Source of the DNA: a virus
Virus genome (UHGV): UHGV-0067992
Length of the DNA stretch: 18,713 nt
Direction: 5' to 3' (one strand)
Shown here: piece by piece, positions 6,034 through 8,860 of the stretch
Layout of the letters: the number at the start of each line of letters is the position of its first letter
How positions within the stretch are numbered: the stretch's first letter is position 1
Translations under genes and position numbers: made by a program
The notes under the pieces: model-generated
Told to the model about the DNA's origin: nothing
The model's database searches: none
What the model saw: only the letters and a program-made list of their open reading frames with translations

Positions 6034-6254
6034 GGTAATATTAAATCGGAACATTTACATCGCGGAATGTAAAATTTAAATAAAAAGGACTCTTCCATGA
6101 GCCAAAATTCCTGAAATCTTAAGGGTAAGATAAAAGGTCTTAATCAGAATGACACGTTTTATTAATAAATAAAGCTATTCTTTCATTGCTGTGTTTTTCT
6201 TTACAAAAGTAATCCTTGCTATGGGTGGTTAATCATGCGTTAATGGTGTTCTGG

Positions 6255-6293
6255 TTTGTTACAAATTTATCTGAAGCAGTCATTGTTATAATT
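6255..6293 (+). promoter_or_regulatory. Candidate extended -10 promoter (TGtTATAAT at 6284-6292) for the cold-shock gene, giving a leader of roughly 100 nt
   Basis: Extended -10 read directly; -35 is poor; csp-family genes characteristically have long AT-rich leaders. Confidence 0.3.
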
Positions 6294-6395
6294 TTATTAT
6301 TTGTACCTCTTGAGATTTCCTTGTTGGTTTTTCTCTCTGATATTTTTTTTCGGACCATTCTGCCCAAGGGCTAATTTCTTCAAAAGGTAATAATT

Positions 6396-6608
6396 ATGTC
6401 TAACAAAATGACTGGTTTAGTGAAATGGTTTAACCCTGAAAAAGGTTTTGGTTTCATCACGCCGAAAGATGGCAGCAAAGATGTGTTTGTCCATTTCTCA
6501 GCAATTCAGAGCAACGATTTCAAAACATTAACTGAGAATCAGGAAGTTGAATTTGGTATTGAGAACGGACCTAAAGGTCCTGCCGCTGTTCATGTAGTGG
6601 CGCTTTGA
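6396..6608 (+). CDS. cspI: CspA-family cold-shock protein, 70 aa, prophage-borne
   Basis: [38 protein letters not shown] carries the RNP1/RNP2-like cold-shock motifs (KGFGFI, VFVHF); matches E. coli CspI as I recall it. Confidence 0.85.
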
Positions 6609-6812
6609 GGTAGACAATATTACAAACCATATTCACTTTAGATGCCCGTGTTGTCATGGTTCCCAGTATAGAACATCATCTTTTGATGTTTCTGACATGA
6701 ATCCTTTCGGGGCAAAATGTATCTTTTGTAAATCAATGATGATTACATTTGATAATATTTCACAATACTTAAATGCCAGCCGTCTGTCGTTGGATTTAAA
6801 AAAGTGAAAATG

Positions 6813-6836
6813 AAGGCTCCTTCGGGAGCTTTTTTG
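6813..6836 (+). terminator. Rho-independent terminator: stem GCTCC / GGAGC, loop TTCG, T6 tract
   Basis: Read directly; about 200 nt downstream of the csp gene and preceded by an A-run. Confidence 0.45.
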
Positions 6837-6879
6837 CTTGGTATCTATTCGATGGATACTCACATACTACGGTAACATC

Positions 6880-7110
6880 ATGAAAAAAATCATAGTTTTT
6901 TTTAACTCTGAACCAGCAGTGGTAGTGCCAGCGATGACTGGAGTTAACACCATCATGCGTGAATATCCAAATGGCGAAAAAACACACCTTACTGTAATGG
7001 CCGCAGGGTTTCCATCTCTGACCGGAGATCATAAAGTCATTTATGTAGCCGCGGATCGACATGTTACTTCAGAAGAAATTCTGGAAGCAGCAATAAGGCT
7101 CTTGAGTTGA
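6880..7110 (+). CDS. Hypothetical protein, 76 aa
   Basis: ATG-initiated frame (MKKIIVFF...); weak SD; no family recognised. Confidence 0.35.
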   Translation: MKKIIVFFNSEPAVVVPAMTGVNTIMREYPNGEKTHLTVMAAGFPSLTGDHKVIYVAADRHVTSEEILEAAIRLLS

Positions 7111-7278
7111 TTTGATGCTATTGTATTGATAATTCAGGAAAATTCTCTTTGTCTGTTTGTGTAAAATTTAGACTATCGTATGTTGATTATTGCGATGTTT
7201 CATCTTATCTTTTACACGTTTGCACCATATAATCGACTTACTGTGTAACTGGAAAGTCATAACAGACTAAAAGAGGAA

Positions 7279-7455
7279 ATGATGAATATTGAAAACTTAA
7301 AAACAAAAGCAGAAGCAGATATTTCTGAATATATAACAAAAAAAATTATTGAACTTAAGAAAAAGACCGGGAAAGAAGTTACCAGTATTCAGTTTACCGC
7401 ACGGGAAAAAATGACGGGTCTTGAAAGCTATGATGTCAAGATTAATTTAATCTGA
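7279..7455 (+). CDS. gnsB: GnsA/GnsB-family small protein, 58 aa (not in the supplied ORF track because it is under 60 aa)
   Basis: Translation MMNIENLKTKAEADISEYITKKIIELKKKTGKEVTSIQFTAREKMTGLESYDVKINLI closely resembles E. coli GnsB/GnsA; SD AAGAGG at 7271-7276. Confidence 0.8.
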   Translation: MMNIENLKTKAEADISEYITKKIIELKKKTGKEVTSIQFTAREKMTGLESYDVKINLI

Positions 7456-7484
7456 TGTATTCAATAATAAAATTTATCCATAAA

Positions 7485-7507
7485 CCTCGTTTTTACGGGG
7501 TTTTGTT
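7485..7507 (+). terminator. Rho-independent terminator: CCTCGT-TTTT-ACGGGG then TTTTGTT
   Basis: Read directly; 30 nt downstream of the gnsB-like stop; stem contains one G-U pair. Confidence 0.45.
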
Positions 7508-7606
7508 ATATTTGAATGGTTCCGAATATCTAAATCACAATTGTTGATGGTTTTTATTAAACCAATGCAGTCCGGCTCAGGAGTGAGAGAAGCCGGACGT
7601 TATGGT

Positions 7607-8017
7607 TTAGCGTGGTAAGATCTGTGTAGTTTTCTGGATGCTTTCAGTAAATAGTAATGAATTATCAAAGGTATAGTAATATCTTTTTTGTTCGTGGATA
7701 TTTGTAACCCACCGAAAAACTCCTGCTTTAGCAAGGTTTCTTCTGTATTCCTGAAATGTGATCTCTCTGGATTTCAGCTTATTAGAGGTCGTTTCTATAA
7801 GATGCCTATCCTTTGAAAATTTGACAGACACAATGTTTTTTAGGCCCTTTAATAACACTGTATTATCATTTTTTAATACAATATGAACATTCTCTGTGGC
7901 TAAATAGTAAATGTAATGTGAGACATTGTGACGTTTTAGCTCAGAATAAAATAATTCACAGTTTAAATCTTTACGCACTTGATCGAATATTTCTTTAAAA
8001 ATGGCAGCCTGAGCCAT
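7607..8017 (-). CDS. ydfO: DUF1398-family protein (YdfO-like), 136 aa
   Basis: Strong resemblance to E. coli Qin-prophage YdfO ([84 protein letters not shown]); start placed at the Met with an AAGG SD rather than the upstream Met at 8032. Confidence 0.8.
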
Positions 8018-8317
8018 TGGTAAACCTTCCATGTGATACGATGGCGCGTAGTTAGCATTATCGTGTTTATTGTTTCAATCTGGTCTGACCTCTTTGTGTT
8101 TTGTTGATGATTTATGTCAAATATTAAGCCTGTTTTTGATGAATAGTGTTGATTGCGTAACAAAATTGAGCCTTGCTGGCATCCAGGAGGGATATGCAAC
8201 CGACAGATGTATGTAAGGTCGATGTACTCAAACTTTCATACTTTTCCTCTTTTATGCAGTAAGATTTGAAGTAATATTTTAACCGCTAGATGACGAGCAA
8301 ACGCATGGAGCGACAAA

Positions 8318-8524
8318 ATGAATAAAGAACAATCTGCTGATGAACTCTCGTTGGATCTGATTCGTGTAAAAAATATGCTTAATAGCACCATTTCTATGAG
8401 TTACCCGGATGTTGTAATTGCATGTATAGAACATCAAGTGTCTCTGGAAGCATTCAGGGCAATTGAGGCCGCGTTAGTAAAGCACGATAAGAATACGAAG
8501 GATTATTCCCTGGTGGTTGACTGA
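8318..8524 (+). CDS. Hypothetical protein, 68 aa, divergent from the ydfO-like gene
   Basis: ATG with GGAG 7 nt upstream; no family recognised. Confidence 0.45.
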
Positions 8525-8860
8525 GCACCATAACTGCTAATCATTCAAACTATTTCACCTGTGACAGAGTCAATATCGCATTCTGTCACTGTCAGGCTAA
8601 TACAGCAATGCAATTCAACTACAGCAATGCCTCGTATTTAGGTGAATTTACAATATCGTCCAGTTCGGATGCCGGCTGCATTTCTGAAGATAAGGCATTT
8701 CGGTTCGCGTATTTTCCCCTCATGCTCGTCAGTCCTGTGCGTAGGAAGAAACAGGACACTCACACTAATTTGTGTGGGCATGCTGTGATGTCCTTCTGAA
8801 TTATTCCTATGCCATTATGTAAAGCGCTGTATCAGATGCTCGTCACGGCTGTCAGGCTGT

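Follow-up and report, generated by a model that had tools for sequence, protein, structure and literature searches.

We analysed an AT-rich block at positions 6034-8530 of an 18,713-nt stretch of the virus genome UHGV-0067992 (the whole stretch is called the window). The block carries cspI, a ymcF/ynfQ-type gene, ynfR, ynfN, gnsB, a gene of the DUF1398 family (YdfO/YbcV type) and ybcW. We concluded, with a probability of roughly 80%, that it is a standard right-end accessory ('moron') region of an Escherichia coli lambdoid prophage, made up of three separable cassettes that serve the lysogen and not virion production. The block is a chimera, Qin-like from Rz to the DUF1398 gene and lambda/DLP12-like from the 5' end of DUF1398 to ybcW, joined to a DUF1441-type packaging module. 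It is also already known; the same arrangement is present in phage Tritos and in many E. coli genomes.

Of the properties that mark a moron, a base composition unlike that of the flanks and presence/absence polymorphism between similar phages were both observed here. The G+C content of the block is 35.5%, as against 48.4% in the left flank and 53.1% in the right flank. The Rz gene borders it on the left and the cos site, at 8890/8891, lies 366 bp downstream of ybcW; the first-pass annotation of this DNA, which had described an AT-rich block of about 2.5 kb between the spanin genes and cos, was thus borne out. The setting is an ordinary lambdoid late region, with a NanS-p-like esterase, DUF826 and DUF1327 proteins and a lysozyme to the left, and a DUF1441 small terminase, a gpA-type large terminase, a lambda-type portal and a ClpP-capsid fusion to the right. 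Positions 4996-18713 of the window form a one-piece 98.8% match to E. coli prophages.

The polymorphism was evident from the genome counts. Block DNA was matched in 3,448 of 5,426 complete E. coli genomes, DUF1398 DNA in 3,168 and ybcW DNA in 2,009, so that at least 1,159 genomes have DUF1398 but no ybcW. (In 1,497 records 80% or more of the block is covered; these are not 1,497 exact copies, as Qin-type loci without ybcW reach exactly 80%.) The converse junction, with gnsB leading to ybcW and no DUF1398 cassette, was found in 632 of the complete genomes; in strain 26a, for example, the segment ~7553-8148 is absent and gnsB runs straight into ybcW. Three arrangements thus occur in E. coli: gnsB-ydfO-ybcW (the window, W2-5, Tritos), ynfO-ydfO without ybcW, and gnsB-ybcW without DUF1398. 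In a Citrobacter prophage other genes replace both DUF1398 and ybcW. Among 80 DUF1398 loci fetched as a sample from IMG/VR, the Qin order (Lys-Rz-cspI-ymcF-ynfN-gnsB-ydfO) was present in full or in part in 70, and 76 had ynfO and ydfO co-directional with no ybcW.

The mosaic is visible within the DUF1398 gene itself, the first ~25 codons of which follow the lambda/DLP12 sequence and not that of Qin. The earlier description of the block as Qin-like cargo stands for the part from Rz through DUF1398, but not for the ybcW side, which matches DLP12 and lambda where Qin has ynfO. In the 97.8%-identical locus of W2-5 the RefSeq order is cspI, ynfQ/ymcF, ynfR, ynfN, gnsB, DUF1398 and a hypothetical protein. 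Similar short sequences, TTGATGGTTTTTATT and TTGATGAATAGTGTTGATT (~7540-7556 and ~8134-8156; positions 2990-3010 of locus L085), flank the DUF1398 cassette that the 632 genomes lack, and may mark its recombination points.

The five open reading frames (ORFs) named in the first-pass annotation were all found at their positions; the ymcF/ynfQ-type gene and ynfR had been overlooked. Far from lacking conservation, the small ORFs are under purifying selection: the ratio of nonsynonymous to synonymous substitution rates (dN/dS) was 0.07-0.25 in all informative comparisons, ybcW and ynfN included, and these are therefore real genes. The two ORFs that had been called unknown were both identified by homology searches. 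The 76-aa ORF is YnfN (PHROG 3425), and the 68-aa ORF is YbcW, so named in Tritos and a 'hypothetical protein' in RefSeq. A PADLOC search with the block proteins gave no significant defence-system match.

The first cassette is a cold-shock unit. The long leader that had been noted upstream of cspI matches the cspA thermoregulator of Rfam over its full length. CspI is 79% identical to CspG at the amino acid level (dN/dS 0.07), and the NCBIfam models for CspG and CspA score it at 128-138 bits, slightly below their equivalog cut-offs. The ymcF/ynfQ-type gene begins 10 nt past the cspI stop, 8 nt after a GAGG Shine-Dalgarno sequence, and its product (dN/dS 0.12) carries two cysteine pairs, CPCC and CIFC, which form a zinc-ribbon motif. 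Its start codon is ATT, as it is in four loci, in all prophage copies compared and in K-12 ymcF, and ORF finders limited to ATG, GTG and TTG consequently show only a 36-aa fragment. The name ynfQ is ambiguous: in the table of a 2018 paper on small proteins it denotes a 37-aa protein between ydfJ and ydfK (PMC6001520), and in RefSeq and later papers (PMC11228462) the 62-aa ymcF paralogue downstream of cspI.

All genes of the block had been taken to be independently transcribed, each separated from the next by a terminator-like hairpin. The short cspI-ymcF gap speaks against the independent transcription, as does the joint response of cspI, ynfQ and ynfN in K-12 (6.5-, 5.9- and 5.8-fold; PMC11228462). 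As to the hairpins, canonical terminators follow ymcF and gnsB, but the hairpins beyond DUF1398 and ybcW lack clear U-tracts, and no terminator was seen between cspI and ymcF or downstream of ynfN (z=0.18). The terminator after ymcF lies within the first codons of ynfR. In the Citrobacter prophage (positions 3928-4000 of locus L089) a hairpin stands at the same site with compensatory changes (GGCCCC/GGGGCC) and the ynfR ORF is absent, so that what is conserved there is the RNA structure and not the peptide. This suggests that the terminator overlapping the ynfR start, rather than the ynfR ORF, is the conserved feature. In K-12, YnfR carrying an SPA tag (YnfR-SPA) is strongly induced by cold shock (PMC6001520), which together with the joint response of cspI, ynfQ and ynfN fits one transcript with regulated read-through.

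YnfN belongs to a very narrow family of only 60 protein clusters, whose members come from E. coli and Citrobacter. Against a 60%-identical homologue dN/dS was 0.20; in the remaining ynfN comparisons dN was 0.18-0.47 and dS was saturated. Homologues with 52-76% identity always lie downstream of a csp and a ymcF-like gene, with or without gnsB, and the order in the Citrobacter prophage is csp-ymcF-ynfN-gnsB. Because csp and ymcF are constant beside YnfN even where gnsB is missing, it is this csp-ymcF pair that YnfN has as its conserved partner. Four Logan contigs (L092-L095) carry csp-ymcF-ynfN trios without gnsB, with additional ynfN paralogues of 35-55% identity nearby; one lies downstream of icd, and the ymcF-like genes there were left uncalled by the gene finder. 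GnsB is 65% identical to K-12 GnsA (dN/dS 0.14), and when GnsA or GnsB is overexpressed, unsaturated fatty acids increase and cold-sensitive mutants are rescued (bioRxiv 10.1101/2024.03.27.586906; PMC10607373).

The second and third cassettes, the reverse-strand DUF1398 gene and ybcW, diverge from a common spacer of 300 bp with 38% G+C, in agreement with the shared AT-rich control DNA of about 300 bp that had been proposed. Aligned with lambda and DLP12, the spacer has a mean column identity of 89%. It contains the exact 17-mer ATCTGGTCTGACCTCTT, matched in 0 of 200 shuffles, which is the PdhR site recovered by genomic SELEX (gSELEX) in DLP12 (PMC7660256). In a pdhR mutant the mRNAs of DLP12 ybcV and ybcW fall 10.0- and 8.9-fold (PMC7660256); both rise more than 1000-fold when T4 MotB, a protein that alters repression dependent on H-NS, is expressed (PMC7827196). 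At ybcW, Hha is enriched and brings about a 17-fold induction of the gene (PMC2408971).

The DUF1398 protein shares 92-93% identity with YdfO, for which a nuclear magnetic resonance structure is available (PDB 2HH8, E=8e-83), and dN/dS for its gene was 0.15-0.18 against lambda and DLP12. Calculations of isoelectric point (pI) and hydropathy indicated a basic protein (pI 9.6) with no transmembrane segment. An AlphaFold2 model built from an alignment of 15 closely related sequences failed, with a predicted local distance difference test score (pLDDT) of 44. The promoter of ydfO responds to an ionic liquid, and increased resistance to oxidative stress has been reported on overexpression of YdfO (PMC4077768). 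Sequence matches to parafibromin entries in PDB (E=0.015-0.76) were not significant and were not used. The word-index protein searches were dominated by lambda contigs of ~3.5 kb and did not extend to distant relatives of DUF1398. The ycgX paralogue has iraM and bluR for neighbours and stands alone. In some strains YnfO and YdfO are fused in frame, and the 233-aa fusion (DUF3950 + DUF1398; protein P0328) stands for a cluster of 761 member sequences; at positions 3725-4426 of locus L006, ynfO and ydfO share a reading frame, 42 nt apart.

YbcW is acidic (pI 4.9) and also has no membrane segment, so that the old 'envelope protein' label is unsupported for these genes. The PHROG 'head protein' and GenBank 'putative envelope protein' labels of DUF1398 were both rejected, as the protein has no transmembrane or signal-like region and is dispensable in lambda (PMC10695390). 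For ybcW, dN/dS was 0.14-0.25 against lambda, DLP12 and a 54%-identical homologue. The AlphaFold2 model of YbcW (pLDDT 76) is a generic three-helix bundle (helices 7-21, 30-38 and 43-58), and Foldseek gave no significant match for it, protein A and Ebh-type domains being the best. An exhaustive HMMER search of 1.84 billion protein representatives returned 168 YbcW matches, nearly all of them, as judged from the alignment, lambda copies with frameshifts or errors; the one clearly divergent homologue seen was P0218, with 54% identity, 272 bp from the end of its contig. The YbcW family is thus also very narrow. YbcW was present in 40 of 50,697 phage records, all Escherichia lambdoids except one evident contaminant. 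Hundreds of ~3.5-kb contigs in the European Nucleotide Archive (ENA) with error-ridden lambda right ends inflate the homologue counts of both YbcW and DUF1398; our guess is that they are a sequencing control amplicon. Lambda sequence was also seen in the 'Campylobacter phage CJLB-4' record (MW057783) and in a plant protein set (Dovyalis caffra; P0032), and is probably contamination.

Could DUF1398 and ybcW instead be an interdependent two-gene module, a toxin-antitoxin pair or a regulator with its target, under one control region? The pair is conserved together with its spacer in the window, lambda and DLP12, the two DLP12 genes respond alike to pdhR and MotB, and the proteins are of opposite charge. 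The genes are divergent across 300 bp, however, and do not form one operon; each occurs without the other in the genomes counted above, and ybcW is absent from Qin-type loci and from the ycgX locus. Overexpression clones of ybcV and ydfO from the ASKA collection are viable with mild phenotypes (PMC2853380, PMC4077768), and no DNA-binding or antitoxin-like fold was evident in the model of YbcW. Shared host-controlled regulation explains the co-variation without any dependence at the protein level. We consider such a module very improbable, and the earlier suggestion of a small regulatory or toxin-related module was not upheld: DUF1398 and ybcW are not to be annotated or pursued as a toxin-antitoxin pair. 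A looser version, with only a slightly better though still slim chance, is that the basic DUF1398 protein works with an interchangeable small neighbour, either the divergent YbcW or the co-directional YnfO/YlcI (DUF3950), as an undescribed two-component regulatory or conflict module. One or the other neighbour was adjacent to DUF1398 in all 83 phage-borne loci examined, and the YnfO-YdfO fusion also speaks for this version, but the sample is only a few lineages deep, ycgX stands alone, and ybcW is common without DUF1398. It is about equally doubtful that ynfN-gnsB is a pair of the GnsA/YmcE toxin-antitoxin type, with a non-homologous protein of 76 aa in the place of YmcE. YnfN does occupy the position of YmcE between ymcF and the gns gene and is likewise 76 aa long, GnsA/GnsB are labelled as an addiction-module toxin in Pfam and RefSeq, and a listing of type II toxin-antitoxin systems includes ymcE-gnsA (PMC8484670). 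There is no detectable similarity between YnfN and YmcE, though, which also led us to reject the idea that they are one gene simply diverged; ynfN and gnsB are non-overlapping and 171 bp apart, csp-ymcF and not gnsB is the constant partner of YnfN, and GnsB overexpression clones restore growth and do not kill (bioRxiv 10.1101/2024.03.27.586906).

The remaining alternative is that DUF1398, YbcW or both serve the phage itself, for example in head assembly or packaging, or as anti-defence proteins made off the late transcript. This would suit the 'head protein' label of PHROG 413, the location immediately before cos, and the orientation of ybcW on the late-transcript strand. In lambda, CRISPR interference (CRISPRi) against lambdap79, the ybcW homologue, causes a ~10^4-fold loss of plating (to about 1e-4), while knockdown of lambdap78, the DUF1398 homologue, is harmless (PMC10695390); according to the lambda literature, neither gene is essential (PMC10695390, its reference 17). 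As lambdap79 lies upstream of the head genes and on the strand of the late transcript, we read the loss as polarity, which the same authors documented for other lambda genes. Among close phage and prophage relatives one or other of the two genes is absent, DUF1398 runs antisense to the late transcript, and a chromosomal stand-alone copy exists in ycgX. We regard such a role for the phage itself as hardly likely.

Several observations nevertheless weigh against the reading of the block as three cassettes serving the lysogen. The lambdap79 plating loss is one of them. The presence of one or other small neighbour beside DUF1398 in the 83 loci and the natural YnfO-YdfO fusion make some functional coupling of DUF1398 to such a neighbour possible. 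Since there is no terminator between ynfN and gnsB, gnsB may share a transcript and not be a separate unit. A consensus scan for sigma-70 promoters, set against shuffled sequence, gave 6 sites as compared to 11.2 in the shuffled sequence, and promoter activity is known for the K-12 and DLP12 copies only (PMC4077768, PMC7660256). Finally, a fitness benefit to the lysogen in the cold is something we infer solely from overexpression phenotypes.

Under the preferred reading, that of a moron region with three separable cassettes, cspI would be controlled post-transcriptionally by its cspA-type 5' untranslated region (5'-UTR), acting as a thermosensor, and would be co-transcribed with ymcF/ynfQ. In the cold, read-through of the terminator after ymcF would extend the transcript to ynfR and ynfN. 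Csp proteins are known antiterminators and may themselves drive this read-through. The gnsB gene lies downstream in this cold-adaptation unit, and its overexpression increases unsaturated fatty acids. The unit as a whole is a phage-borne paralogue of the cspG-ymcF-ymcE-gnsA locus of the host; where that locus has ymcE, the unit has ynfR and ynfN, which are unrelated to it. The DUF1398 gene, on the opposite strand, and ybcW are two stand-alone cassettes that share the 300-bp AT-rich promoter region, the DLP12 copy of which is bound and activated by PdhR and silenced by H-NS/Hha; H-NS would presumably silence the copy in this prophage as well, and we infer that the DUF1398 and YbcW proteins work independently of each other. 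In the lytic cycle, late transcription modified by Q probably crosses the whole plus strand through cos.

Table 1. Features of the accessory block and its borders, in window coordinates
Feature	Position	Strand	Evidence and remarks
Rz i-spanin (DUF2514)	5536..6033	+	PF10721 E=7.7e-39; rzpQ in annotated locus L001; left border of block
Rz1-like ORF inside Rz	5711-5983		Lipobox-like LTSC
cspA-type 5'-UTR RNA thermoregulator and cspI coding region	6250..6635	+	RF01766, 112.8 bits (gathering score 78), E=1.3e-28, model positions 1-428
cspI, 70-aa cold-shock protein	6396..6608	+	PF00313 E=1.6e-31, residues 5-69; RefSeq CspI in 97.8%-identical locus
ymcF/ynfQ-type 'cold shock small protein', 62 aa	6619..6807	+	PF23641 (YmcF-like) E=6.9e-32, positions 1-62 of 62; PGAP annotation
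ynfR, 21-aa small protein	6810..6875	+	RefSeq annotation
Intrinsic terminator after ymcF	6812..6833	+	GGCUCC-UUCG-GGAGCU then UUUUUU; -12.4 kcal/mol, z=-2.3; within first ynfR codons
ynfN, 76 aa (earlier 'unknown 76-aa ORF')	6880..7110	+	RefSeq YnfN; PHROG 3425 E=7e-54
gnsB, 57 aa, GnsA/GnsB family	7282..7455	+	PF08178 E=3.3e-35, profile 1-54 of 54; RefSeq gnsB
Intrinsic terminator after gnsB	7482..7503	+	Terminator scan; -11 kcal/mol, z=-2.65
8-bp GC-rich hairpin just past DUF1398 stop	7570..7598	both	-17.8 and -17.9 kcal/mol, z=-3.0 and -3.9; no clear U-tract
DUF1398 protein	7607..8017	-	136 aa from RefSeq start, 141 aa if start at 8032; PF07166 E=6.4e-46, profile 1-119 of 119
Divergent ydfO/ybcW spacer	8018..8317		300 bp, 38% GC
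PdhR box ATCTGGTCTGACCTCTT	8078-8094		Exact 17-mer, 0/200 shuffles matched
ybcW, 68 aa, lambda lambdap79 homologue (earlier 'unknown 68-aa ORF')	8318..8524	+	PHROG 657 E=3e-47; 94% DNA identity to K-12 ybcW
Hairpin after ybcW	8558..8596	+	-15.5 kcal/mol, z=-2.3; no U-tract
cosN-like sequence GGGCGGGAGCGT	8891-8902	+	Right end of phage chromosome, outer limit of cargo region

The cos assignment agrees with the phage Tritos record, the right end of which corresponds to window position 8890 and the left end of which (GGGCGGGAGCGT...) begins at 8891. The cosN-like GGGCGGGAGCGT is similar to the GGGCGGCGACCT of lambda, and the window departs from the Tritos left end ~33 bp further on. On the other side, the best-matching E. 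coli prophages align from window position 4996 onward only. Upstream of the lysis genes, positions 672-4877 encode the NanS-p-like esterase (a 652-aa DUF1737-SASA-DUF6645 protein), the DUF826 protein, a 330-aa protein with a DUF1327 domain in its N-terminal part only, and a reverse-strand ORF of 104 aa without a family. Positions 1-65 resemble the 3' end of the small RNA STnc100 of Rfam, including its terminator hairpin, at 33.3 bits, which is below the gathering score of 47; the match is clipped by the window edge.

About two thirds of the complete E. coli genomes contain the block, wholly or partly. The genes have names in K-12 and lambda, and their regulation via the cspA-type leader, PdhR and H-NS/Hha has already been touched on in print. 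For the biochemistry of DUF1398, YbcW, YnfN and YmcF, the window gives no special leverage beyond that of K-12 and lambda. Its use is for annotation: two genes that ORF finders overlook, the ATT-started ymcF-type gene and ynfR, can be added, and YnfN can be entered as a real, selected protein with csp and ymcF as conserved neighbours.

When the block was compared with known systems, among the closest were phage Tritos (OV696610) and the prophages of W2-5, ATCC 25922, ECOR29 and others, which have an identical architecture from the lysis genes to cos at 97.6-98.8% identity. Over the block itself, identity is 97.8% to W2-5 and ATCC 25922 and 97.6% to Tritos, the differences being point changes only; the DUF1398-ybcW part is somewhat more diverged (94% against W2-5). 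Qin (rzpQ-cspI-ynfQ-ynfR-ynfN-gnsB-ydfO-ynfO) agrees with the window in order, orientation and sequence from Rz to DUF1398, and shares with it the cspA-type leader, the ATT start of the ymcF-type gene and a terminator that overlaps ynfR. It differs in having ynfO (DUF3950) co-directional and 42 bp upstream of ydfO, next to a Nu1-type small terminase, and no ybcW; in the window ybcW is present and divergent, and the small terminase is of the DUF1441 type. The right end of lambda and DLP12 (bor - lambdap78/ybcV - lambdap79/ybcW - ylcI - cos/Nu1) shares the divergent pair, the spacer, the PdhR box and the position before cos, with 87.4% DNA identity between window 7588-8530 and lambda 47023-47950; unlike the window, it carries bor in place of cspI-ymcF-ynfR-ynfN-gnsB, and ylcI after ybcW.

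The chromosomal cspG-ymcF-ymcE-gnsA locus is paralogous to the cold unit and similar in layout, with a csp of 213 nt, a 10-nt gap, an ATT-started ymcF of 189 nt, a 76-aa gene and a gns of 174 nt. DNA identity is 74% to cspG-ymcF (6392-6755) and 73% to gnsA (7264-7456). In the middle, the chromosomal locus has the hydrophobic YmcE and overlapping genes, whereas the window has the unrelated soluble YnfN together with ynfR, ymcF is followed there by a terminator, and 171 bp separate ynfN from gnsB. The literature ties both the cspG locus and the prophage unit to cold shock and to membrane lipids.

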